Source: Betaproteobacteria bacterium
Lineage (GTDB): Bacteria; Pseudomonadota; Gammaproteobacteria; Burkholderiales; Usitatibacteraceae
Assembly (NCBI GenBank): GCA_016720855.1
Contig: JADKJU010000005.1
Location: 249,636-313,635 of the forward strand
Length of the DNA: 64,000 nt
Direction of reading: 5' to 3'
The position numbers and the translations under genes are program-made. The notes under the pieces were generated by a model. It was given only the letters and a program-made list of their open reading frames with translations, did not search any database and had not been told where the DNA came from. Positions 49,518 to 63,854 of this stretch are shown piece after piece. Numbering within the stretch: the stretch's first letter is position 1; every line of letters begins with the position of its first letter.

Positions 49518-49531
49518 TTGATCTCCCTTAA
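49518..49531 (+). promoter_or_regulatory. degenerate FNR/Dnr-type box upstream of the hemerythrin gene
   Basis: TTGATCTCCCTTAA (TTGA-N6-TTAA). TAGTCT at 49554-49559 lies where a -10 element falls if the box is centred at -41.5. Confidence 0.35.
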
Positions 49532-50197: not shown

Positions 50198-51265
50198 TCA
50201 GCGCAGGGTTCTTGCGAGCCAGACGGCCGCAGTGAGGACGACGACCGCGCCGCCCTGGTGGGCGGTGGCGATGCCGACCGGCACGGCCATCAGCAGCGTC
50301 GTGATGCCGAGCACGACCTGGAGCAGCGTGGCACCGGCCAGCGTGCCGGCGGCAAGACGCGATTCCTTGCTTGCGGTGCGCGAGGCGAACACCCGCCACG
50401 CGAGGATCCACGCACCCGCGAGGACGACGAGCGCGAGCGTGCGGTGCACGAACTGCACGGTGGCCATGTTGTAGGCGAAATTGCGCCACCACGGCTCGAT
50501 CAGCAGGATCTCGGGCGGAACCCAGTGGCCGTTCATGAGTGGCCAGGTGTTGTAGGCGAAGCCGGCGCGGATGCCGGCCACGAACCCGCCAGTGAGCGCC
50601 ATCGCGAACACGACGACAGCGAAGGCGAGACCGGCGCGCCGCAGTGCGTCGGTCGCGCCCGACCGCGCCGGGCGCAGGATGCCATGCGCCACCCAGAACA
50701 TGCACGCGTATATGAGCAGCGCCAGGCCCAGGTGTGCCGTGAGCCGGAACTGGCTCACCTGCGGATCGTCCACCAGACCGCTCTTCACCATGTACCACCC
50801 CATCCCGCCCTGCAGCCCGCCCAGCAGCAGGATGCCCGCGAGCTTCCAGCCCAGGGGCCGGTCCAGCCGCCCGCGCAGCCAGAAGTAGAGGAAAGGCACG
50901 AAGAAGGCCACGCCGATGAGTCGCCCGAGCAGCCGATGGAAATACTCCCACCAGAAGATCGACTTGAACCCCTCGAGGCCCATGTCGTGGTTGCGCAGCC
51001 TGAACTCGGGCGTGAGCTTGTACTTGTCGAAGGTCTCGGCCCACTGCGCCTCGTTCAGGGGCGGGAGCGCGCCCACCAGGGGCTTCCACTCGACGATGGA
51101 CAGGCCGGAATGGGTGAGGCGGGTCGCCCCGCCCACCACGACCATCGCAAAGACCAGGGCGCAGCAGGCCAGCAGCCAGAAAGCCACAGCCCGGCGGCCC
51201 TTGCCCGGGGTCGCGTAAGGGGAGGCCGCCGCCGCGGCGATCGGGAGGGCGTTCACGGGGTCCAT
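50198..51265 (-). CDS. ctaA: heme A synthase (COX15/CtaA family, proteobacterial type)
   Basis: I prefer ATG at complement 51263-51265. GGATRLTHSGLSIVEWKP, WWEYFHRLLGR and FVHRTLA are conserved His-bearing helices. Confidence 0.85.
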   Translation of the reverse strand: MDPVNALPIAAAAASPYATPGKGRRAVAFWLLACCALVFAMVVVGGATRLTHSGLSIVEWKPLVGALPPLNEAQWAETFDKYKLTPEFRLRNHDMGLEGFKSIFWWEYFHRLLGRLIGVAFFVPFLYFWLRGRLDRPLGWKLAGILLLGGLQGGMGWYMVKSGLVDDPQVSQFRLTAHLGLALLIYACMFWVAHGILRPARSGATDALRRAGLAFAVVVFAMALTGGFVAGIRAGFAYNTWPLMNGHWVPPEILLIEPWWRNFAYNMATVQFVHRTLALVVLAGAWILAWRVFASRTASKESRLAAGTLAGATLLQVVLGITTLLMAVPVGIATAHQGGAVVVLTAAVWLARTLR

Positions 51266-51319
51266 TTTAGGTGCCGGCTCCACTTCCGGCCATGTCCCGA
51301 AGGCCCAAAAAGGCTTTTC

Positions 51320-51333
51320 TTGAACCCGTTCAA
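51320..51333. promoter_or_regulatory. FNR/Dnr-type box (perfect palindrome) in the ctaA / oxidase divergent region
   Basis: TTGAACCCGTTCAA = TTGA-N6-TCAA. TAGCAT at 51356-51361 has class-II spacing (box centre to predicted start site about 41.5 nt). The first downstream start codon with a Shine-Dalgarno is 51417. Confidence 0.6.
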
Positions 51334-51416
51334 GTTTTTCCGGCGCCCGGCTGCCTAGCATACCCCCGGTGACGTGCCGAACCTCGCGGCCCGCGCCCAT
51401 TCCAGGAGAAGTCCCC

Positions 51417-51602
51417 ATGAGCCAGGTACCCGCCACGCCCGGTGCGGCCGACGATGCCGACGTGCACGACGAACCGATTCCGATGATGCAGCAACTCATC
51501 GACAACCCGTTCCTGCTCCTGTTCCTCGGGGTCGCGATGCCCACCGTCCTCTACATCGTCTGGGGCGTGATGGAAATCGTGGGCATCCCGCTCACCAAGT
51601 GA
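51417..51602 (+). CDS. small single-TM membrane protein heading the oxidase operon
   Basis: 61 aa with AGGAGA Shine-Dalgarno and one hydrophobic helix (FLLLFLGVAMPTVLYIVWGVMEIV). It may be analogous to small accessory subunits of B-type oxidases. Confidence 0.5.
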   Translation: MSQVPATPGAADDADVHDEPIPMMQQLIDNPFLLLFLGVAMPTVLYIVWGVMEIVGIPLTK

Positions 51603-51630: not shown

Positions 51631-52185
51631 ATGAGCGCCATCCAATCCCCGCCCCAGAGAGTCTGGTGGAAGCAACCCCTCGACCGAGTCGAAGGCACCT
51701 GGATCGTCATCGCCTTCGTGTGGTGCATGGTCATGTTCTTCATGATGCCGTACTGGCACGTCTACGGTAAGCAGAACCTCTCCAACGAGGCCTACCGCTC
51801 CACGCCCGAGGCGTTCCTCGCCAAGGCGCAGGCGATGGTGGACAAGCACACCGTGCGCACCGTCACGGAGCAGAACATTCCCGTCGTGCACCCCGTGCCG
51901 GGCGCCGACGTCTATCTCGTGGCGCGCCTGTGGCAGTGGTGGCCGGTGCTGGAACTCGAGGAAGGCCAGACCTACCGCCTGCACATCATGTCCACCGACT
52001 GGCTGCACGGCTTCTCCCTGCAGCCCGAGAACATCAACATCCAGGTGCATCCCGGCTACGAGCACGTCGTGACCATGACGCCCACCAAGGAAGGCACCTA
52101 CTCGATCATCTGCAACGAGTACTGCGGCATCAACCACCACACGATGGCGAGCAAGCTCTACGTCGTCAAACCGAAGAAGCAGTAG
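51631..52185 (+). CDS. heme-copper oxidase subunit II, single-TM, CuA cupredoxin domain (B-family/ba3-like)
   Basis: 184 aa. The CuA ligands are intact: DWLHGF ... CNEYCGINHHTM (C-x3-C-x3-H-x2-M). Collinear with ba3 subunit II (..DVIHGF....ICNQYCGLGHQNM). Confidence 0.85.
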   Translation: MSAIQSPPQRVWWKQPLDRVEGTWIVIAFVWCMVMFFMMPYWHVYGKQNLSNEAYRSTPEAFLAKAQAMVDKHTVRTVTEQNIPVVHPVPGADVYLVARLWQWWPVLELEEGQTYRLHIMSTDWLHGFSLQPENINIQVHPGYEHVVTMTPTKEGTYSIICNEYCGINHHTMASKLYVVKPKKQ

Positions 52186-53949: not shown

Positions 53950-54819
53950 ATGAACAGCCGCGTGAAACTCTTCTTCGACCTGTTCAAGCTCCGCATCGGC
54001 TTCGCGATCGGGCTCACCGCCCTGGCGGGGGCCCTCGCGGTCCCCGGCCGGCAGGCAGGCGCTTGGCAGGTGGCGCTCCTGGTCGCGTGCGTCATCGCCG
54101 CTTCGGCGGCGGCAGGCGCGTTCAACCAGTACGTCGAGCGCGACCTCGATGCGCGCATGGGACGCACGCGCGGCCGCGCCTTCGTCACCGGCCAGCTCAA
54201 GCACGGGCCGTTCTGGCTCGGCGTGATCGGCCTCATGCTGGCGCTTGCCGTGTGCGCTGCGGCGGTCGCCGTGAATGCCGTCGCCGCCCTGTTCGTGTTC
54301 CTGGGCGCCTTCTTCTACGGCGTCGTCTATACGGTCATCCTCAAGCGGCGCACGTGGATGAACATCGTGATCGGGGGCCTCGCCGGCAGCTTCGCGGTGC
54401 TCGCCGGGGCGACCGCCGTCACCCCGGGCGAGATCGGCCCCGTGGCCGCCTCGCTCGCCTGGGTGCTGTTCCTCTGGACGCCGCCGCACTTCTGGAGCCT
54501 CGCCATCGCCTTCCAGGACGACTACCGCGCCGCGGGCGTGCCGATGCTTCCGGTGGTCGTGGGCGAGGCCCGCGCGGCCCGGGTCGTGCTCGGCGGCACC
54601 GTCGTGCTCGTCGCCTCATCCTTCCTGCCGCTCCTCTTCGGCCTGGGCACCCTCTATGCGGCCGGCGCGATCGCCGGCGGACTCCTGTTCCTGCGCGGGG
54701 CCGCGCGCCTTGCGGCCGATCCTTCCCGCACCACGGCGATGGGGAGCTTCCATGCCTCCCTCGCCCAGCTCTCGCTCCTGCTCATCGGCGTGATCGCGGA
54801 CGCGGCCTGGCGGGCCTAG
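53950..54819 (+). CDS. ctaB: protoheme IX farnesyltransferase (heme O synthase)
   Basis: 289 aa UbiA-family protein. NQYVERDLDARMGRTRGR and WTPPHFWSLA motifs. Confidence 0.9.
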   Translation: MNSRVKLFFDLFKLRIGFAIGLTALAGALAVPGRQAGAWQVALLVACVIAASAAAGAFNQYVERDLDARMGRTRGRAFVTGQLKHGPFWLGVIGLMLALAVCAAAVAVNAVAALFVFLGAFFYGVVYTVILKRRTWMNIVIGGLAGSFAVLAGATAVTPGEIGPVAASLAWVLFLWTPPHFWSLAIAFQDDYRAAGVPMLPVVVGEARAARVVLGGTVVLVASSFLPLLFGLGTLYAAGAIAGGLLFLRGAARLAADPSRTTAMGSFHASLAQLSLLLIGVIADAAWRA

Positions 54820-54824
54820 CCCGC

Positions 54825-55658
54825 ATGGGTACCGGTTGCCGAACGCGCTGGCTGCAGACGGCGGCCGCGTTCGCCTTCGGGGTCGTCCTCGGGACCGCGC
54901 AGGCGCGTGCGGAATCCGGGGGCGCCGCCCTGGATGCGAACGCGACCCTCGAACGCAGCCAGCGCGCCCTCGGCAACCCGGTGGGCGACTACGCGTTCAA
55001 GGCGGCCGACGGCAAGCCGGTGCGGCTTTCGCAGTTCCGCGGCCGCCCGCTCCTCGTCAACTTCGTGTACACGGCCTGCTCGCAGGTCTGCCCGACCACC
55101 ACGCGATTTCTCGCGGGTGCGGTCGCCGAAGCCGATCGCATGCTCGGCCCCGGCCGCTATGCCGTGGCCACGATCGGCTTCAACTATCCCTATGACACGC
55201 CGGAGGCGATGCGCGCCTTCGCCCGCGCGCAGGGCATCGATCGCCGCGACTGGGTCTTCCTGAGCCCCGAGGCCGGGGTGGTGGAAAGCATCACCCGCGA
55301 CCTCGGGTTCAGCTTTGCCGCTTCCTCCGGCGGCTTCGACCATCTCACGCAAGTCACGCTCATCGACGAGGAAGGCCGCGTGGCCGCGCAGGTGTATGGC
55401 GAGAGCTTCGAGGTGCCGATGCTCGTGGGCCCGCTCAAGGCCCTGCTCACCAATGCTCCCCTGCCGCAATTCTCCGTCGCCAATCTCCTCGAGCGCGTTC
55501 GATTGCTGTGCACCGTGTATGATCCTCGAAGCGGGCGCTATCGCCTGGACTACAGCATCGTGCTCGAGATTCTCATCGGCGCGTCCATCGTGCTCGCCAC
55601 GTTCTTCTTCCTGTTCCGCGAATGGCAACGGCACCGGCGCCGGTTGCGCGCGGGCTGA
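54825..55658 (+). CDS. SCO1/SenC copper chaperone with C-terminal membrane-anchor extension
   Basis: 277 aa. Thioredoxin-fold CxxxC is FVYTACSQVCP. There is an extra ~70-aa tail ending in a TM helix (ILIGASIVLATFFFLF). Confidence 0.85.
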   Translation: MGTGCRTRWLQTAAAFAFGVVLGTAQARAESGGAALDANATLERSQRALGNPVGDYAFKAADGKPVRLSQFRGRPLLVNFVYTACSQVCPTTTRFLAGAVAEADRMLGPGRYAVATIGFNYPYDTPEAMRAFARAQGIDRRDWVFLSPEAGVVESITRDLGFSFAASSGGFDHLTQVTLIDEEGRVAAQVYGESFEVPMLVGPLKALLTNAPLPQFSVANLLERVRLLCTVYDPRSGRYRLDYSIVLEILIGASIVLATFFFLFREWQRHRRRLRAG

Positions 55659-55662
55659 TGCC

Positions 55663-57600
55663 ATGCTCGCCCTCCTGCAAAGGCTCCTGCAGCGGCTCTT
55701 CCTCGGCGCGGAAAGGATCGCCAACGCCATCTTCGGGGAACGCCTCAATCCGCTCTACCACCTCGGGGCGATCAGCTACTACCTGTTCTGGGTCGTGCTC
55801 GCGAGCGGGCTCTACCTCTACGCCTTCTTCGACACGAGCGTGACCGGCGCCTACGCTTCCGTCGAGCGCCTCACCCACGACCAGCGATGGATCGGCGGGA
55901 TCCTCAGGAGCCTGCACCGCTACGCCTCCGACGGCATGGTGCTCACCATGGTGCTGCACCTGACGCGCCACTTCGCCTTCGACCGGCACCGCGGCTTCCG
56001 CTGGTTCTCGTGGGTGAGCGGCGTGATCCTGCTCTGGCTCGTGTACGCCTCGGGCATCAACGGCTACATGCTGCCCTGGGACCAGCTCGCGCAGTTCACC
56101 GTGACCGCCACCGCCGAGTGGTTCGACGCGCTGCCGGTGTTCAACGGCCTGCTCATGCGCAATTTCCTGAGCGCCGACAGCGTGAACGACCGGTTCTTCT
56201 CCCTGCTCTCGTTCCTGCACATCGGCCTGCCGCTGGGCGTGCTGGCGCTCCTGTGGATCCACACGCACCGCGTGCCGCAGGCGAAGACGCTGCCGCCCAA
56301 CCCGCTCATGGTCGCGCTCGGCGCGGCGATGATCGCGCTCTCCGTCGTGAAGCCGGCGCTGAGCCAGCTGCCCGCCGACCTCGCGACGACGGCGTCCTCG
56401 ATCGAGTTCGACTGGTTCTACCTGCCTACCTACGCCCTCATCTACCGCTGGACGCCCGGCGCCGTCTGGGCGCTCGTCGTCCCCCTCACGATTCTCGCCG
56501 TGCTGGCACCGTGGCTGCCGCCGAAGTTCGGGCGGCGCGCCATTCGCGCGTTCCACGTGCTGGCCCATCCCGACAATCGCATCGTCCCGGTGAAGGAGGA
56601 CGAGTCGATCCTCGACGCCTGCCTGCGCGAAGGGCTTCCCATGCCCTTCGATTGCCGCAACGGCGGCTGCGGCGTTTGCAAGTGCACGGTGCTGCACGGG
56701 GAGGTGGAATTGGGCGCCTACCAGGAAAGTGCCCTGTCCACCGCGGACCGCGAGGCCGGCCGCGTGCTCTCCTGCGTGGCGAAGCCCCTTTCCGATGTCG
56801 AGATCGAATACGAACCCACGGACGAATCCGCGCGTCCCGTCACCCTGCATGACGCGCGAGTGGTCTCCATGGACCTGCTCGCGCCGGACGTCATGCGCGT
56901 TCGCCTCGAGGTCGAAGGGGGAGCGAGGATCCCCTTCTACGCCGGCCAGTACATCAACATCCTGCTGGACGACGGCCAGAAGCGCGCCTTCTCGTTCGCC
57001 ACCCCTCCGCACGAGCCCGGCCCGATCGAGCTGCACATCCGCCGCATCGAAGGCGGGCGATTCACCACGCACGTCTTCACCGCCATGAAGGTCGGCGATC
57101 ATATTCGCTTCGAGGGACCGGTGGGCTCCTTCTTCCTGCGCGAGGACGGGGACAAGCCCGTCATCTTCGTGGCCGGGGCCACCGGATTCGCACCCGTGAA
57201 GAGCATGGTGGAGCACGCGCTGCATGCCGGCGTGACCCGGCCCATGGTGCTCTACTGGGGCACGCGCAACCTCGCCGACATGTACCTTCGCGAACTTCCC
57301 GAGCGCTGGGCGAAGGAGCATGCGAACTTCCGCTTCGTTCCCGTGCTCTCCGATGCGGTGCCCGGCGACGGCTGGGAGGGCAGGAAGGGCCTTGTCCACG
57401 AGGCGATCCTCGCCGACTATCCCGACCTCGGGGGGCATCGCATCTACGCCTGCGGCTCGGTGAAGATGGTCGAGGCCGCGCAACCTGCGTTCGCCAAGCA
57501 GGGGCTCTCGCCCGACGACTGCTTTTCCGATGCGTTCAAGCTCGCACCGCGCATCCATTCGAAGGACGCCGATCTCGTGCGCCTGGGGGGGCGCCCATGA
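55663..57600 (+). CDS. fusion protein: di-heme cytochrome b (bc1/b6-type N-domain) + plant-type [2Fe-2S] ferredoxin + FAD/NAD(P)H ferredoxin-reductase domain
   Basis: 645 aa. Two His pairs are each spaced 14 residues apart (SLHRYASDGMVLTMVLH and FLHIGLPLGVLALLWIH). The 2Fe-2S motif is CRNGGCGVCKC...SCVA. FNR motifs are RAFSFA, FVAGATGFAP and YACGS. Confidence 0.85.
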   Translation: MLALLQRLLQRLFLGAERIANAIFGERLNPLYHLGAISYYLFWVVLASGLYLYAFFDTSVTGAYASVERLTHDQRWIGGILRSLHRYASDGMVLTMVLHLTRHFAFDRHRGFRWFSWVSGVILLWLVYASGINGYMLPWDQLAQFTVTATAEWFDALPVFNGLLMRNFLSADSVNDRFFSLLSFLHIGLPLGVLALLWIHTHRVPQAKTLPPNPLMVALGAAMIALSVVKPALSQLPADLATTASSIEFDWFYLPTYALIYRWTPGAVWALVVPLTILAVLAPWLPPKFGRRAIRAFHVLAHPDNRIVPVKEDESILDACLREGLPMPFDCRNGGCGVCKCTVLHGEVELGAYQESALSTADREAGRVLSCVAKPLSDVEIEYEPTDESARPVTLHDARVVSMDLLAPDVMRVRLEVEGGARIPFYAGQYINILLDDGQKRAFSFATPPHEPGPIELHIRRIEGGRFTTHVFTAMKVGDHIRFEGPVGSFFLREDGDKPVIFVAGATGFAPVKSMVEHALHAGVTRPMVLYWGTRNLADMYLRELPERWAKEHANFRFVPVLSDAVPGDGWEGRKGLVHEAILADYPDLGGHRIYACGSVKMVEAAQPAFAKQGLSPDDCFSDAFKLAPRIHSKDADLVRLGGRP

Positions 57601-58097
57601 ACCGCCCGCTGCGCTACCTCCTGCAGGGCCTCCTCTATGGCGCCTTCGCGGCCACCCTGGGCTATTTCTCGACCTCGCCGGCGTTCGAGCCGCTTCCCCC
57701 GGGCCACGCGCTCATCCGCCTGTCGCTCAACCACGCCGGACAACGCAAGGTGGCCTGCCGCACGCGCACGCCCGAGGAACTCGCGAAACTGGCGCCCAAC
57801 ATGCGGGCAGCGGAAGACTGCTCGCGCGAGCGCGCGCCCGTGCTGGTGAAAGTGGAGCTCAATGGCAAGTCCGTGGCCGACATCGTCGCGGCGCCGACGG
57901 GCCTGTCGCGCGACGGCGCGTCGGTGGCCTACCGGCGCATACCCGTCGTCGCGGGCACGTACCTCGTGAAGGTGAGCATCGCGGACAACGCGGCGGGACT
58001 TTTCGACCGCGTGCGTGAGGAGGAAGTGCGTCTCGAGCCGGGCCGCGTGCTGGTGATCGACTTCGAACCCGGCAAGGGCGGGATCGTGTTGCGCTAG
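57597..58097 (+). CDS. 166-aa membrane-anchored hypothetical protein
   Basis: ATGA overlap with the preceding gene and 2 nt from the next. One N-terminal TM (YLLQGLLYGAFAATLGYF). Strong GC3 coding signal. No motif recognised. Confidence 0.6.
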   Translation: MNRPLRYLLQGLLYGAFAATLGYFSTSPAFEPLPPGHALIRLSLNHAGQRKVACRTRTPEELAKLAPNMRAAEDCSRERAPVLVKVELNGKSVADIVAAPTGLSRDGASVAYRRIPVVAGTYLVKVSIADNAAGLFDRVREEEVRLEPGRVLVIDFEPGKGGIVLR

Positions 58098-58099
58098 CC

Positions 58100-59677
58100 A
58101 TGAAAGCCGCCTCCCTGTCGCTTCCCCGCCCCGGCCGTGCCGCGCTCGTCGTGGAGCGGGTGGACGCGCTCTTCGACCGCGCCTTCGGCCAGCGCCTGAA
58201 CCCGTGGCGGCATCTCGGCGCGCTCGGCTTCCTGTTCTTCTGGATCTGCTGCGCCTCGGGCATCTGGATCTACGTCGGCTACGACACCAGCACCCTCGGC
58301 GCGCACGAGAGCCTGGCCGCGATGGACCGCAACGAGTGGCCGCTTGGCGCGCTGGCGCGCGCGCTGCACCGCTACAGCGCCGACGCCCTCGTGGTGGTGA
58401 CCGCGCTTCACCTCGCGCGGGAACTGGCGCGCCGGCACTACGCGGCGTTCCGCCTCTACGCGTGGCTCACCGGGCTCGTCGTCCTGGTGCTGATGTTCGC
58501 CGCCGGCATCGGCGGCTACTGGCTGCCCTGGGACCAGCTCGCGCAGTGGAGCCTCACGGCCACCACGGAATGGTTCGACGCGCTGCCGGTCTTCGACGGC
58601 GCCCTGTCGCGCAACGTCATCGCCGGCAGCCAGGTGAACGACCGCTTCTTCTCCCTCCTCATCTTCCTGCACATCGGCCTGCCGCTCGCCATGCTCGGCG
58701 CGATGTGGGCGCACGTGCAGCGCGTGAGCCCCGCACGCACCAATCCGCCGGGCGCGCTGGGGTGGGGATCCCTCGCCATGCTGGCGGCGCTTTGCCTCGC
58801 CAAGCCCGTCTCGCTGATGCCTGCGGCCGACCTGGCTTTCCTGCCCGCCAGGATCCCCGTCGACTGGTTCTATCTCTTCCCGCACCCGCTCATGGCCTGG
58901 CTCGGACCCGACGGGCTGTGGTGGGCGACGGCCGCCTTTCTCGCGGGCCTCGCAACCCTGCCGTGGGCCACGCGCGTCGCGCGCGCACCGGCGGCCCGCG
59001 TGAGCCTGGCCAACTGCAACGGCTGTGCGCGCTGCTTCGCGGACTGCCCGTACGACGCGGTGGTGATGGTGGCGCGCACCGACGCGCGTCCGCATCCGCG
59101 TCAGGCACAGGTGAACCCTGACCTGTGCGCGGGCTGCGGCATCTGCACCGGCGCCTGCCCATCGTCCACGCCGTTCCGCCGGGACGAGGCGCTGGTCACC
59201 GGCATCGACATGCCCTCCATGGCCATCGGCGAAATGCGCGACCGGCTGGAGGCGCGCACGGCTGCCCTCGTGGGCCGCCCGCGCATCGTGGTCTTCGGTT
59301 GCCGCTGGGGAGCGGATAGCGAAAGCCTCGCAGGGCCCTCCACCGCCGCGATCGAATTCGTCTGCGGCGCGATGCTGCCCCCCTCGTTCGTGGAATACGC
59401 GCTGCGCGCAGGGGCCGACGGCGTGCTCGTCGCCAGTTGCCGCGAAGGCGACTGCGAGTTCCGCACCGGCGACCAGCTCATCGCTGCGCGGCTGGGCGCC
59501 GAGCGCAAGCCTGCATTGCGATCGAGCGTGGCGCGTGAGCGCGTCCGGCTGGTCCCCGCCGGGCGCACCGATACCGGATTCCTGCGCACGCAGCTCGATG
59601 CCTTCCGCGCGGACCTCGAACGACTCGAATCCCGCCATGCCTCACCCCCCAAACGCCAGGAGAAGCACCATGGCTAG
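58100..59677 (+). CDS. fusion protein: di-heme cytochrome b + 2x[4Fe-4S] ferredoxin + MvhD/FlpD-like (hydrogenase iron-sulfur subunit) domain
   Basis: 525 aa. The cytochrome b part is paralogous to 55663-56500 (ALHRYSADALVVVTALH and FLHIGLPLAMLGAMWAH). Cluster motifs are CNGCARCFADCP and CAGCGICTGACP. The MvhD-like segment is IVVFGCRWGA...FVCGAMLPPSFVEYALRAGADGVLVASCREGDCEF. Confidence 0.8.
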   Translation: MKAASLSLPRPGRAALVVERVDALFDRAFGQRLNPWRHLGALGFLFFWICCASGIWIYVGYDTSTLGAHESLAAMDRNEWPLGALARALHRYSADALVVVTALHLARELARRHYAAFRLYAWLTGLVVLVLMFAAGIGGYWLPWDQLAQWSLTATTEWFDALPVFDGALSRNVIAGSQVNDRFFSLLIFLHIGLPLAMLGAMWAHVQRVSPARTNPPGALGWGSLAMLAALCLAKPVSLMPAADLAFLPARIPVDWFYLFPHPLMAWLGPDGLWWATAAFLAGLATLPWATRVARAPAARVSLANCNGCARCFADCPYDAVVMVARTDARPHPRQAQVNPDLCAGCGICTGACPSSTPFRRDEALVTGIDMPSMAIGEMRDRLEARTAALVGRPRIVVFGCRWGADSESLAGPSTAAIEFVCGAMLPPSFVEYALRAGADGVLVASCREGDCEFRTGDQLIAARLGAERKPALRSSVARERVRLVPAGRTDTGFLRTQLDAFRADLERLESRHASPPKRQEKHHG

Positions 59678-61097
59678 CCTTCACTCCGCCCATGCCCACT
59701 CCCTCGCTTCGGCTGCCGACCAATCGGCGAGCGGCACCACATTCGGGATCACCGTGGGGCGCGACGCCTCCGCGCGCCTCGCGACCGGCTGGCTCGCGCT
59801 CGGCATCGCCGCGCTCGTCGGATCCGGCGTGTTCTCGCTCCTGCTCGTGCTCGCGCGCACGCCGGGGCTCAAGGAAATCTTCCCCGTCGCCGATTTCTTC
59901 CAGGTGGCGCTCGTCGCGCACGTGGACCTGTCGGTCCTCGTCTGGTTCCTTGCCTTCGCGGGCGTGCTGTGGAGCCTTGCGTGCGATGCCCGCGGCATCG
60001 CCGTGGGCTGGGTCGCCCTGGCGCTGTGCGCCGCCGGGACGCTGGCGCTTTGCGTGGCCCCGCTCGCGGGGAACGCGGTGCCGGTGCTGGCCAACTACAT
60101 CCCCGTCATCGACAACGCCGCGTTCCTGGGCGGTCTTGCCGCCATCGGCGCCGGCGTCGCGCTTGCGGCGACGCGCACGTTCTGGGCGGCTCGCGCCTTT
60201 GCCCCGACCCTCGACGGCGAGTCGGCGCTACGCTGGGGAATCCTCGGATCGGCCGTCGCGACGGCCATTGCCCTGGCCGCCTTCGGCTGGTCGTGGATGG
60301 AGCTCTCGCCGCACCTCGAGCGCAAGGCCTACTACGAGCTGCTCTTCTGGGGCGGCGGCCACGTGCTGCAGTTCACGTGGACCCTGCTCATGCTCGCCGG
60401 CTGGCTGTGGCTTGCGAGCGCTCTGGGGCTGCGCCCGGCACTTTCGCCTCGCGTGACGCTTCTCGTCTTCACGATCGCGCTGGCCTGCGTGTTCGTCACC
60501 CCCGTCATCTACATCGCCCACCCGGTCGCCTCGGTGGAGCACCACAAGCTGCAAACCTGGCTCATGCGTTTCGGCGGCGGGCTCGCGATCCCGCCGGTTC
60601 TCCTCGCGCTCCTGTGGGCGATGCGCAGCCTGCCATCCCTCGACGCGCAGAAGCGCCCGATCTTCGGGGCGCTCGCGGCCTCCATCGGGCTCTTCGCGGC
60701 CGGCGGCCTCATCGGCTTTGCCATCAGCGGGGCCAACGTGAAGATCCCGGCGCACTATCACGGCTGCATCGTCGGGGTGACGCTCGCGTTCATGGGACTG
60801 GCCTACCACCTCCTGCCGCAGCTCGGTTTCGCCGCGCCGCGCTCGCGTCTGGCCGCGTGGCAGCCCTGGCTCTACGGCGGAGGGCAGCTCGCGCACATCG
60901 TGGGCCTGGTGTGGTCGGGCGGATACGGCGTTGAACGCAAGGTGGCGGGCGCCGCGCAGGTGCTGCGCACGCCGCAGGAGGTGGCGGGCATGGGGCTCAT
61001 GGGCCTGGGCGGCCTGGTAGCGATCCTGGGCGGCCTCGCGTTCGTGATCGTCGTGATCGGCGCCCTGCGTCGTCCCGCCGGCGCCGAGACCGCCTGA
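59670..61097 (+). CDS. highly divergent heme-copper-oxidase subunit-I homologue (12 TM) retaining all six canonical His ligands
   Basis: I prefer ATG 59670 (AGGAGA Shine-Dalgarno). 475 aa. His84 (LVAHVD), His231 (LLFWGGGH), His291/292 (VEHH) and His362/364 (AHYHG) sit at nearly the same positions as ba3 H72, H233, H282/283 and H384/386. There is no Tyr at His+4 (HVLQF). Confidence 0.65.
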   Translation: MASLHSAHAHSLASAADQSASGTTFGITVGRDASARLATGWLALGIAALVGSGVFSLLLVLARTPGLKEIFPVADFFQVALVAHVDLSVLVWFLAFAGVLWSLACDARGIAVGWVALALCAAGTLALCVAPLAGNAVPVLANYIPVIDNAAFLGGLAAIGAGVALAATRTFWAARAFAPTLDGESALRWGILGSAVATAIALAAFGWSWMELSPHLERKAYYELLFWGGGHVLQFTWTLLMLAGWLWLASALGLRPALSPRVTLLVFTIALACVFVTPVIYIAHPVASVEHHKLQTWLMRFGGGLAIPPVLLALLWAMRSLPSLDAQKRPIFGALAASIGLFAAGGLIGFAISGANVKIPAHYHGCIVGVTLAFMGLAYHLLPQLGFAAPRSRLAAWQPWLYGGGQLAHIVGLVWSGGYGVERKVAGAAQVLRTPQEVAGMGLMGLGGLVAILGGLAFVIVVIGALRRPAGAETA

Positions 61098-61960: not shown

Positions 61961-62674
61961 ATGCAGCCCGGAGAACCGCGCTCACGCGGGCCCGACATCC
62001 CGGTCGAGCAATTCCTCGTCAACCTGCCGCTCTTCAGCGATCTCACGCCCGAGGAGATCCAGCGCGTCGCGGGCGGCACTCGCCGCATCTACGCGACCAA
62101 GGGCGAGACGCTTTTCACGCGAGGCGACCGTTGCGAGGGCTTCCACGTCGTCCTCTACGGGCAGGTGAAGCTCTTCGTCACTTCACCCCAGGGCTCCGAG
62201 AAGGTGATCGAGATCATGGGCCCGGGCATCTCGTTCGGCGAGGCGGTCCTCTTCATGGACATCCCCTACCCCGTCTCGGCGCAGGCGCTCAAGGATTCGC
62301 TCCTGCTGCACGTCTCCAAGAGCCTCGTCTCGGAGGAGATCGTGCGCGATCCCCGCTTCGCGAGGCGGCTGCTGGCCGGCATGTCGAAGAAGCTTCACCA
62401 GCTCATCCACGACGTGGAGGCCTACTCGCTTCGCTCGGGGCTGGAGCGCGTGATCGGCTACCTGCTGCGCGACGACGCCATTTCCGACGGCTCCGCGCGC
62501 TCGACGAGCGTGACGCTGCCCGCCAACAAGATGATCGTGGCCTCGCGCCTCAATCTCACGCCGGAGTACTTCTCGCGCATCCTGCACGAGCTGGCCGGCG
62601 CGGGGCTGATCGTGATGGAGGGCCGTTCGGTTTCGGTCCCCGACATCGAGCGCCTGCGTACCTACACCGGCTGA
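61961..62674 (+). CDS. Crp/Fnr-family transcriptional regulator, Dnr/NnrR type (no FNR Cys cluster)
   Basis: 237 aa with a cNMP-like beta-barrel and a C-terminal HTH carrying the E--SR recognition motif (TPEYFSRIL), which reads TTGA-N6-TCAA boxes. The N-terminus lacks the Cys-x2-Cys-x5-Cys of FNR. Confidence 0.8.
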   Translation: MQPGEPRSRGPDIPVEQFLVNLPLFSDLTPEEIQRVAGGTRRIYATKGETLFTRGDRCEGFHVVLYGQVKLFVTSPQGSEKVIEIMGPGISFGEAVLFMDIPYPVSAQALKDSLLLHVSKSLVSEEIVRDPRFARRLLAGMSKKLHQLIHDVEAYSLRSGLERVIGYLLRDDAISDGSARSTSVTLPANKMIVASRLNLTPEYFSRILHELAGAGLIVMEGRSVSVPDIERLRTYTG

Positions 62675-62684
62675 ACGCGCAACC

Positions 62685-63854
62685 ATGGCCGCCCGCACCT
62701 CATCCAAGCCGAAATGCGGACCGCCGGCCGCCGCAAACCTCCTCGCCCCCCAGGTCGAGGAGTGGCTCAAGGCCGCCGCCCTCGACGTGGCCGACGACGG
62801 GATCGTCATCTCCGATGCGTCGACCCCCGATGCGCCGATCGTCTATGTGAGCCCGTCGTTCGAGCGGCTCGTGGGTTACTGCGCCGCCGAAATCATCGGC
62901 ACCAACTGCCGCATGGTGCAGGGGCCGGGCACCGATCACGAGACCGTGAAGGGCATCGCGATCGCGCTGCAGAAGGGCAAGGTCTTCCAGGGCGAGATCC
63001 TCAACTATCGCAAGGACGGCACGCCCTTCTGGAATTTCCTGCGCATCGCGCCCATCCGCGACGCCGCCGGGAAAGTCACCCACCATGTGGGCACCCAGTC
63101 GGACGTGACCGAGCTGCACCACGCGCGCGAGCGCGAGCACGACTTGCAGGACACGGTCGCCCACGCCTCGCGCGTGCGCACGGTGGCCGCGCTGGGCGCG
63201 TCGCTCGCGCACGAAGTGAATCAGCCGCTCGCGGCCATCATCACCAACGCCGAGGCGGCGCTGCGCTTCCTCGACGCCGGCAACCCGGCGGAAGTGCGCG
63301 AGGCCCTGGTGGCCATCGCCGGCGATGCGCGGCGCGCCGGCGAGATCATCCATCGCGCGCACCGACTCGTTCGCAAGCAGCCCGCGGCAGCCGAGGCCGT
63401 CGATCCCGCGCGCACCGCCTCCGAGGTTCTCGACTTCGCGCGTGCACGGCTTCGCCATGCCGGCGTCAAGGCGCGTCTCGAGGCGGCCGGAACGCTGCCG
63501 CGCGTAATGGCCGATCCCATCCAGCTCCACCAGGTGCTCCTCAATCTCGTGGTGAATGCGATCGAGGCGATGGAGGGCGCGGCGCCCGGCACCGAGCGCA
63601 CGCTGGTCGTGGCGATCGAGCGCGAAACGGGCGGCGTGCGCCTTCGCGTGCAGGACACCGGTCCAGGCGCCGACGACGAATCCCTGGCCCGCATGTTCCG
63701 GACATTCCATACGACGAAGGCCCGCGGCACCGGCCTGGGACTGCTCGTCACGCGCTCCCTCGTGGAGGCGCACGGGGGGCGGCTGGAAGTTGCGCGCAAC
63801 CCCGGCCGCGGCCTCGTCTTCACGATCCACCTGCCCGGAGAAGAGCCGAAATGA
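62685..63854 (+). CDS. LOV-domain sensor histidine kinase
   Basis: 389 aa. The LOV core is GIVISDAS.PDAPIVYVSPSFERLVGY...GTNCRMVQGPGTD...EILNYRKDGTPFWN...THHVGTQSDVT (photoactive Cys in NCR). HisKA motif SLAHEVNQPL. HATPase motifs DTGPG and GTGLGL. Confidence 0.85.
   Translation: MAARTSSKPKCGPPAAANLLAPQVEEWLKAAALDVADDGIVISDASTPDAPIVYVSPSFERLVGYCAAEIIGTNCRMVQGPGTDHETVKGIAIALQKGKVFQGEILNYRKDGTPFWNFLRIAPIRDAAGKVTHHVGTQSDVTELHHAREREHDLQDTVAHASRVRTVAALGASLAHEVNQPLAAIITNAEAALRFLDAGNPAEVREALVAIAGDARRAGEIIHRAHRLVRKQPAAAEAVDPARTASEVLDFARARLRHAGVKARLEAAGTLPRVMADPIQLHQVLLNLVVNAIEAMEGAAPGTERTLVVAIERETGGVRLRVQDTGPGADDESLARMFRTFHTTKARGTGLGLLVTRSLVEAHGGRLEVARNPGRGLVFTIHLPGEEPK

Follow-up and report, generated by a model that had tools for sequence, protein, structure and literature searches.

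The stretch of DNA considered here (the window) comprises 64,000 nucleotides of contig JADKJU010000005.1 from the betaproteobacterial assembly GCA_016720855.1. Close to its end, at positions 59670-61097 of the plus strand, an intact open reading frame (ORF) encodes a 475-residue membrane protein, hereafter the HCO-like protein. This protein is a genuine, very divergent homologue of subunit I of the heme-copper oxidases (HCO), and its gene is the distal one of an operon for an eNOR, a nitric oxide reductase (NOR) derived from the B family of the HCO (Hemp & Gennis 2008; Murali et al. 2024, PMC11214002). The Shine-Dalgarno sequence AGGAG lies 8 nucleotides 5' of the ATG, the 5' end of the gene overlaps the stop of the preceding cytochrome b/Fe-S gene (58100-59677) by 8 nucleotides, and the GC content at third codon positions (GC3, 0.89) is in line with that of the genuine genes of the window (68% GC). 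The product is deposited at NCBI as MBL0144181.1 under the label 'cbb3-type cytochrome c oxidase subunit I'. Its His residues of interest are H84 in AHVD, H231 in FWGGGH, H291 and H292 in the EHH motif that begins at E290, and H362 and H364 in AHYHG, and the residues from H231 onward read HVLQF. A first-pass annotation made from the sequence had listed this ORF together with its His motifs, the HVLQF stretch, the 8-nucleotide overlap and about 12 transmembrane (TM) segments, all of which are confirmed by the translation and by a structural model with 12 long helices.

The assignment of this protein to HCO subunit I, also made in the first-pass annotation, is borne out both by profile comparisons (Pfam COX1, hhalign and HMMER) and by the fold. 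The Pfam COX1 model (PF00115) matches the protein with an E-value of 1.9e-16 and 60.4 bits, for a cut-off of 34.8, over profile positions 3-423 of 436. The AlphaFold2 model, generated from a 33-sequence alignment of close relatives, reaches a pLDDT of 85.7 and a pTM of 0.88. When this model is compared to the PDB with Foldseek, the top 35 chains are HCO subunit I throughout, with a probability of 1.0 and query-normalised TM-scores of 0.54-0.72, and no significant match is obtained beyond HCO subunit I. These 35 chains span the A, B and C families as well as cNOR and qNOR, the ba3 oxidase scoring 0.70 and the NorB structures ranking only mid-list; the structure prediction that had been proposed as a check thus places the fold with HCO subunit I. 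The same annotation had spoken of little obvious similarity to standard oxidases. This is fair at the pairwise level, since PDB oxidases are matched neither by phmmer with the protein alone against all PDB sequences nor by a profile of the 33 close relatives, but it does not apply at the profile level, where the COX1 score is well above its cut-off. Besides, no NCBIfam model was matched at E<=0.01, including TIGR00780, the CcoN equivalog, and the NnrS family, put forward as an alternative to be checked, did not appear in a Pfam scan at E<=0.1.

A broader profile, built on an alignment of 113 diverse representatives that share 31-49% identity with the HCO-like protein (A2), allows its position within the superfamily to be specified. 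Searched with HMMER, the PDB oxidases that this profile reaches belong to the B family only (ba3, E=1.8e-18; 7deg, E=7.8e-13), and the A-type COX1 of locus L095 is not matched. The comparison by hhalign with the family of the neighbouring eNOR subunit I gives a probability of 99.9% and an E-value of 2.4e-33 over 438 aligned columns. In terms of bit scores, the eNOR-type subunits I of related loci obtain 123-162, and ba3 and 7deg 51-70. The simplest reading of these comparisons would be that an eNOR/B-type subunit I was duplicated long ago and that the copy then lost the metal site.

The heme ligands are retained to a high degree. Within A2, H231, H362, W227, G230 and Y143 are invariant, and near-invariance is observed for H84 (112/113), H364 (111/113), Q234 (112/113), R423 (110/113), K424 (111/113) and N142. 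In total, about 40 positions are conserved at 90% or more despite the low overall identity, and W-G-G-G-H-x-x-Q around H231 stands out as an invariant family motif, whose G-H-x-x-Q part aligns with the G-H-S-S-Q-Q of eNOR. Both the hhalign comparison with the eNOR family and the HMMER alignment with ba3 pair H84, H231, H362 and H364 with H72, H233, H384 and H386 of ba3, so that their designation as heme and helix-VI ligands by the first-pass annotation stands. In the HMMER alignment, R423/K424 are moreover found opposite R449/R450, which bind the propionates in ba3. The bis-His site of the low-spin heme, in helices II and X, and the proximal His of the high-spin heme, in helix X, are therefore conserved according to these alignments.

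Among the three His of the CuB/FeB centre, H231 is the only one kept. The two others had been placed at H291 and H292, with a spacing said to resemble that of ba3, a proposal that does not hold. Indeed, the helix-VII His-His pair of ba3 (H282/H283) falls opposite I280/Y281 in the hhalign and HMMER alignments alike, and the distance from H231 to I280/Y281 is 49/50 residues, equal to that between H233 and H282/H283 in ba3, whereas H291/H292 are 60/61 residues away. With model helices at 260-283 and 289-320, the EHH motif is located at the first turn of helix VIII; it is not conserved across the family: in A2, position 290 is a Glu in 55 of the 113 sequences, position 291 is mostly Phe (32), His (30) or Tyr (25), and position 292 is Arg (38), Ile (15), Met (10) or His (7) in the most frequent cases. 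In the 33 close relatives, E290 is invariant, H291 is present in 32 sequences, and position 292 is occupied by His (23), Arg (8), Gln (1) or Tyr (1). Across the family alignments, no conserved His pair was found in helix VII or VIII. The lack of the cross-link Tyr known from oxygen reductases, which the first-pass annotation had deduced from HVLQF, is confirmed, its place being taken by F235 or, in a gapped alignment, by Q234. From these residues, we infer that the HCO-like protein can hold two hemes, namely a low-spin heme between H84 and H364 and a high-spin heme on H362, with R423/K424 at the propionates, and that it cannot form the canonical three-His CuB/FeB centre. The lack of such a centre implies that it would not be a conventional O2 or NO reductase, and a catalytic NOR or oxidase of any known type is an unlikely identity on the basis of its residues. 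The specific candidate of a cNOR/qNOR NorB, whose FeB site has three His plus a Glu, was rejected, given that two of the three His are missing and that NorB ranks only mid-list by fold.

The surroundings of the gene are summarised in Table 1. The first-pass annotation had described the gene as stand-alone and without a cognate subunit II, a description contradicted by the presence, 6-8 kb upstream, of a gene for a CuA subunit II (51631-52185) and of one for a canonical-type subunit I, both in the same co-oriented cluster, which is conserved in related loci. The latter subunit I, of 576 residues, matches ba3 with an E-value of 3.6e-49 and has a Gln at the Y237 position; this replacement of the cross-link Tyr is the diagnostic substitution of eNOR (PMC8756737). 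The 576-residue protein thereby combines the Gln, the three-His site and the CuA subunit II of an eNOR, whereas the HCO-like protein has Gln at +3 and Phe at +4 from H231 and misses two His. An alternative assignment of the neighbouring oxidase to sNOR, based on the idea of a norSY-senC arrangement, was dropped in favour of eNOR because Gln occupies the Tyr position in the 576-residue protein. As to the NCBI name of the HCO-like protein, its identification as a cbb3-type CcoN was also rejected: no CcoN model matches it, neither ccoO nor ccoP is found nearby in the window, and the family profile reaches B-family structures only.

Table 1. Genes and other features around the HCO-like gene (positions are those of the window)
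Feature	Position	Strand	Remarks
Hemerythrin gene, beyond ctaA	49583..50155		
Heme A synthase (COX15/CtaA)	50198..51544	-	divergent from the operon
FNR/Dnr-like box, TTGA-N6-TCAA	51320..51333		in the ctaA/operon gap; consensus match only
Small single-TM ORF	51369..51602	+	5' of subunit II
CuA subunit II (CNEYCGINHHTM)	51631..52185	+	
eNOR-type HCO subunit I, 576 residues	52196..53926	+	GHSSQQ, with Gln at the ba3 Y237 position; HH and HFH intact
UbiA-family heme O synthase (CtaB-like)	53950..54819	+	
SCO1/SenC copper chaperone	54825..55658	+	
cytbFNR: fusion of cytochrome b (2x H-x13-H), plant-type 2Fe-2S ferredoxin, FAD-binding and NAD(P)-binding reductase	55663..57600	+	
166-residue protein, N-terminal TM helix and beta-sandwich, two conserved Cys	57597..58097	+	no family match
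cytbFeS: fusion of cytochrome b (N-terminal domain, 2x H-x13-H), 2x[4Fe-4S] (CxxCxxCxxxC) and MvhD/FlpD	58100..59677	+	
HCO-like protein, HCO subunit-I fold, 12 TM	59670..61097	+	keeps H84, H231, H362, H364 and R423/K424; I280/Y281 at the place of the helix-VII His-His
Polytopic membrane protein, 266 residues	61109..61909	+	no family match; only in closest relatives
Crp/FNR-family regulator	61961..62674	+	
Apparent sensor histidine kinase	62685..63854	+	read from the translation; only in closest relatives

The two cytochrome b (N-terminal domain) fusions of the operon are paralogues, and each of them keeps two H-x13-H pairs, i.e. the four ligands of two b hemes, as well as its Fe-S motifs. Because these residues are kept, a transmembrane electron path through the fusions is possible: electrons could travel between the NAD(P)H or Fe-S domains in the cytoplasm and the periplasmic face, on which an HCO fold carries its low-spin heme. 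The direct supply of electrons by the cytochrome b/Fe-S fusion that the first-pass annotation had suggested is plausible in view of the translational coupling of the two genes, of their co-occurrence in most related loci and of one natural fusion of cytochrome b to an HCO-like domain. The cytbFNR protein (55663-57600) is similar to the 'novel cytochrome b/b6' fusion that has been under discussion in Accumulibacter for a long time. Concerning the 166-residue protein, its predicted structure (pLDDT 90.8) retrieved only generic beta-sandwiches with Foldseek (best E=1.2e-3, TM-score of 0.44 at most), with no cupredoxin and no COX2 among them, and its candidacy as a degenerate subunit II is for that reason not supported.

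A few additional observations concern the borders of the operon. The small ORF at 51369-51602 (...DNPFLLLFLGVAMPTVLYIVWGVMEIVGIPLTK) has counterparts of 47-53 residues at the same place in loci L001, L083 and L087, its true start being probably internal; it may encode an unannotated small subunit, which we take to be comparable to subunit IIa of ba3. In the same region, the longest ORF of ctaA counts 448 residues, the match to the COX15-CtaA profile does not begin before residue 121, and there is an overlap between the 5' part and the small plus-strand ORF; the true start of ctaA probably lies near 51265. The C-terminal TM segment of about 45 residues of the eNOR subunit I of the window (…APGTFVLAMVFLTSFILYYFVNWKYLSTVWPLK) is encoded as a separate ORF of 42-48 residues in distant eNOR operons (L083 2473-2619; L087 3004-3132), which amounts to the fusion or fission of a small-subunit gene. 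As for potential regulatory sites, the box at 51320-51333 (TTGAACCCGTTCAA) shows two mismatches to TTGAT-N4-ATCAA and a perfect TTGA-N6-TCAA core, and another box at 49518-49531 (TTGATCTCCCTTAA), upstream of the hemerythrin gene, also has two mismatches to TTGAT-N4-ATCAA; with up to two mismatches, this consensus occurs 16 times in the window, for 6.1 expected. Finally, the 266-residue protein downstream of the HCO-like gene contains two 'AHR' motifs, loosely reminiscent of CtaA, and is present only in loci L003, L004, L054 and L075.

The survey of distribution and neighbours that had been proposed for this gene reveals a widespread family, located in eNOR clusters and in oxidase or heme-A clusters. 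A word-indexed search retrieved more than 6,700 sequences; clustered at 50% identity, the family has 1,695 representatives at E<=1e-3 and 787 at E<=1e-30, and a collection of species-representative genomes holds at least 594 confirmed matching stretches. Among the carriers in culture are Ramlibacter cellulosilyticus USB13, Comamonas granuli NBRC 101663, Noviherbaspirillum sp. ST 5-3, Denitratisoma oestradiolicum and Thioalkalivibrio sulfidiphilus HL-EbGr7. The betaproteobacterial set consists of 80 genome loci completed with L001 and L002, hence 82 loci. In the 80 genome loci, the gene set of the operon recurs in every case with a sufficiently long flank, and two arrangements prevail, with few variants: SCO1-cytbFNR-166-cytbFeS-target and SCO1-cytbFeS-166-target-cytbFNR, where 'target' denotes the HCO-like gene. 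Over the 82 loci, cytbFeS was counted in 76, the 166-residue protein in 74, SCO1 in 66, cytbFNR in 66 and UbiA in 62, short flanks accounting for most absences; a subunit I was detected in 78 by tblastn, some of these hits being self-matches of the HCO-like gene, and 67 full-length homologues were found by blastp.

The contigs of eleven distant representatives were also inspected, nine of which were informative. Two of the nine carry eNOR operons devoid of cytochrome b fusions and composed of subunit II, eNOR subunit I (GHxSQQ), a peptide of 42-48 residues, the HCO-like gene, UbiA and SCO1, and in one of them (L083 2629-4875, P0248) a natural HCO-like::UbiA fusion directly follows the eNOR subunit I on its 3' side. 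In five others, ctaA is arranged head-to-head with the HCO-like gene at a distance of 18-190 bp, one of these five pairs being included in a classical aa3 cluster (COX2-COX1-Cox11-COX3-SURF1-UbiA). Another has ctaA at 4 kb, and the last one (L088 2350-3732) belongs to a system-II cytochrome c biogenesis cluster, ResB-CcsA-HCO-like-thioredoxin-TPR. Natural fusions also occur: in agreement with this last cluster, the HCO-like::TPR proteins P0131, P0178, P0209 and P0241 end with TPR domains of the CcmH/CycH type, UbiA is adjacent to or fused with the HCO-like gene in further clades, and cytochrome b is linked to the HCO-like domain in a single sequence beginning at a contig edge (P0121). When metagenomes were scanned with the gammaproteobacterial clade as seed, 80 loci were obtained, in which an eNOR-type subunit I was found 20 times, an A-type aa3 cluster 7 times, ctaA 30 times, ubiA 26 times, the 166-residue protein 34 times and a cytochrome b fusion 27 times. 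When at least 3 kb are available on both sides (34 loci), HCO or heme-A biogenesis neighbours are present in 32 cases and ctaA or ubiA in 26. Taken together, heme A/O synthase and oxidase-assembly genes are the constant company of the family.

An equivalent operon with two cytochrome b fusion genes has been described in Ferrigenium straubiae by Becker et al. 2026 (preprint, bioRxiv 10.64898/2026.01.22.701106). There, the equivalent gene is called 'eNOR scaffold protein of unknown function', its product was found in the proteome, and the cytochrome b-FeS-FAD-NAD fusion is proposed to be a quinol:NAD+ oxidoreductase; according to the supplement, the scaffold protein corresponds to IMG 2878407321, which carries the annotation K02274 (cytochrome c oxidase subunit I), and is encoded 3' of cytbFNR and a hypothetical gene. 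As far as it is presented there, the Ferrigenium operon resembles that of the window in its COX1-like gene, heme O synthase, Sco1, cytochrome b-FeS-FAD-NAD fusion, hypothetical protein and cytochrome b-FeS fusion, and differs from it by a slight change in gene order and the insertion of PerM. The synteny of the window and of the related betaproteobacterial loci agrees with this operon, and the HCO-like protein and the Ferrigenium scaffold protein are most probably members of the same family, as judged from gene order and annotation. Neither the main text nor the searched supplements of the preprint contain a ligand analysis, a function or a family-wide context for the scaffold protein.

What such a protein would do can be approached from its ligands and its company. 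We hold it rather probable that it is a CuB-less accessory paralogue of eNOR/B-family HCO subunit I with two hemes. An accessory two-heme membrane protein of this kind would serve heme-A-dependent HCOs; it may work in the handling of heme O/A or in assembly or, in the clade of the window, it may instead be a redox partner that the cytochrome b fusions connect to NAD(P)H. The UbiA and TPR fusions speak for a role in heme handling or assembly, as do the genomic contexts with ctaA and with cytochrome c biogenesis genes and the name given in the preprint; a role in electron transfer or catalysis is favoured by the cytochrome b module of this clade, the conserved polar intramembrane residues and the fusion to cytochrome b. 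Several points weigh against this accessory reading. The tight coupling to two redox fusions in this clade is easier to reconcile with catalysis or electron transfer than with a chaperone, and the adjacency of ctaA/ctaB is equally expected of a plain heme-A-using enzyme. In addition, polar residues are conserved within the membrane (N142, Y143, E223, Q234, T296, S338, Q398, Q406 and H409), which would suggest some chemistry rather than a passive scaffold, and a non-canonical metal site may be formed by H231 together with E290/H291, in the betaproteobacterial clade, or with Y281. Besides, heme binding across the family is deduced from the conserved ligands, and the match to the Ferrigenium scaffold protein is one of gene order and annotation rather than of compared sequences. 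A further reading, which we regard as rather unlikely, is that the HCO-like protein and, in this clade, the NAD(P)H-linked cytochrome b fusions compose a dedicated machine making heme A (or heme As) or inserting it into eNOR and aa3 when oxygen is scarce. As a membrane acceptor or template, the HCO-like protein would then receive in its two oxidase-like heme pockets the prenylated heme that CtaB/CtaA release or, alternatively, it would supply electrons for the reaction of heme A synthase. The idea of an alternative heme A synthase that replaces CtaA is weakened, because a canonical ctaA adjoins the operon in the window and stands head-to-head with the HCO-like gene in other clades.

Among the other explanations, a heme-only redox enzyme is possible, although we would not call it likely. 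Electrons would pass from NAD(P)H to FAD, the 2Fe-2S cluster and the two b hemes, and from there to the low-spin and then the high-spin heme of the HCO-like protein, where a small molecule (O2, NO, peroxide or another) would be turned over without CuB, unless the electrons are handed on to eNOR or CtaA. Such a chain is consistent with the intact heme-b His and Fe-S/flavin motifs of both fusions, with the many invariant polar intramembrane residues, with the co-detection of the proteins in the Ferrigenium proteome reported in the preprint, and with the recurrence of the module made of a cytochrome b fusion, the 166-residue protein and the HCO-like protein in 74-76 of the 82 betaproteobacterial loci and 27-34 of the 80 metagenome loci; P0121 even unites two of its components. 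However, P0121 is one sequence at a contig edge, no obvious proton channel is seen, the UbiA and TPR fusions and the system-II context indicate biogenesis, and the link to cytochrome b is clade-specific, since cytochrome b fusions are missing from many clades in which the HCO-like gene is accompanied by ctaA only or lies in an aa3 cluster. The catalytic proposal of the first-pass annotation goes further, with H231, H291 and H292 forming, beside a high-spin heme, the three-His CuB/FeB site of a minimal HCO/NOR that receives its electrons from the cytochrome b/Fe-S fusion without a subunit II. We judge it improbable. The conserved heme ligands, the constancy of E290 and H291 in close relatives, the 8-nucleotide overlap, the single cytochrome-b::HCO-like fusion and the location of H291 where helix VIII begins on the periplasmic side, with a depth near that of the canonical site as estimated from secondary structure, all speak for it, but both profile alignments put I280/Y281 at the place of the canonical His-His, the spacing of H291/H292 is not that of ba3, and position 292 is Arg, Gln or Tyr in 10 of the 33 close relatives, both positions being variable family-wide. 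Moreover, the residues opposite S309/T312/T315 of the ba3 K-channel are hydrophobic in the family consensus, this correspondence being tentative. The qualification of the protein as a new minimal branch was thus overstated: the family forms a large distinct branch, its Ferrigenium equivalent is already named, and two of the three active-site His are missing. At the other extreme, the loss of these two His and of the Tyr/Gln position could reflect a decaying duplicate of the eNOR subunit I, a pseudo-enzyme with no function of its own. This is hardly credible and effectively refuted by the conservation of the family, with its 1,695 clusters, its at least 594 stretches in species-representative genomes, its roughly 40 highly conserved positions and its intact ORFs (GC3 of 0.89 for the gene of the window), to which the detection of the Ferrigenium protein described in the preprint can be added.

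With respect to novelty, the family has already been noticed and named, yet it is uncharacterised; judged by the evidence so far, the finding is no artefact, nor does it amount to a new type of enzyme. In the searchable literature, no report was found of the loss of the helix-VII His pair, of the eNOR-like origin or of an association with ctaA and aa3 clusters beyond eNOR, and searches for a subunit-I homologue that lacks CuB and is connected with CtaA returned nothing beyond the 2026 preprint. Two open questions are touched upon, namely the delivery of heme a/o into oxidase subunit I and the O2-dependent cofactor of eNOR under denitrifying conditions. A widespread paralogue that appears to keep both heme pockets without the catalytic metal site, and that resides near heme A/O synthase genes, is a testable candidate for a missing accessory function. 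If the heme-A machine were true, it would address the maturation of the heme-A-containing eNOR near anoxia and the delivery of heme a to subunit I, and a heme-only enzyme fed by NAD(P)H would represent a new electron-transfer architecture in the HCO superfamily. In practical terms, public databases label the members 'cbb3-type cytochrome c oxidase subunit I' (at NCBI), 'cytochrome c oxidase subunit 1' (at IMG) or K02274. Such oxidase names are unfit for the family because two CuB ligands are missing, and the misnaming can inflate the counts of terminal oxidases in metagenome-based metabolic inference.

Compared to known systems, the family shares its genomic company (ctaA, ctaB, surf1, cox11 and sco1) with Surf1 and the CtaA-CtaB complex, whose folds are unrelated to that of the HCO-like protein, the likeness being confined to genomic context. 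The gNOR family has been described as the first HCO family in which even one active-site His is replaced (Murali et al., PMC11214002); in gNOR, one His is changed to Asp and the metal site is kept, whereas in the present family two His are gone with no conserved acidic substitute at their place. Subunit I of the Thermus thermophilus ba3 oxidase (PDB 1EHK/1XME), a B-family member, superimposes on the model of the HCO-like protein with the TM-score given above at about 19% identity, the differences being the replacement of H282/H283 by I280/Y281 and of Y237 by F235 (or Q234), and the absence of a CuA partner. Among the HCO tested, eNOR subunit I obtains the best profile scores (123-162 bits; hhalign E=2.4e-33) and has in common with the HCO-like protein the 12-TM fold, the heme ligands, the Arg/Lys pair, the helix-VI G-H-x-x-Q and the operon itself. 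The HCO-like protein differs from it by the loss of the helix-VII His (I280/Y281), by a Phe instead of the Gln at the Tyr position, by a length shorter by about 100 residues, by K-channel-equivalent residues that are not conserved and by the lack of a CuA subunit II of its own; and, unlike eNOR subunit I, its family also occurs outside eNOR operons, beside ctaA and in aa3 clusters.

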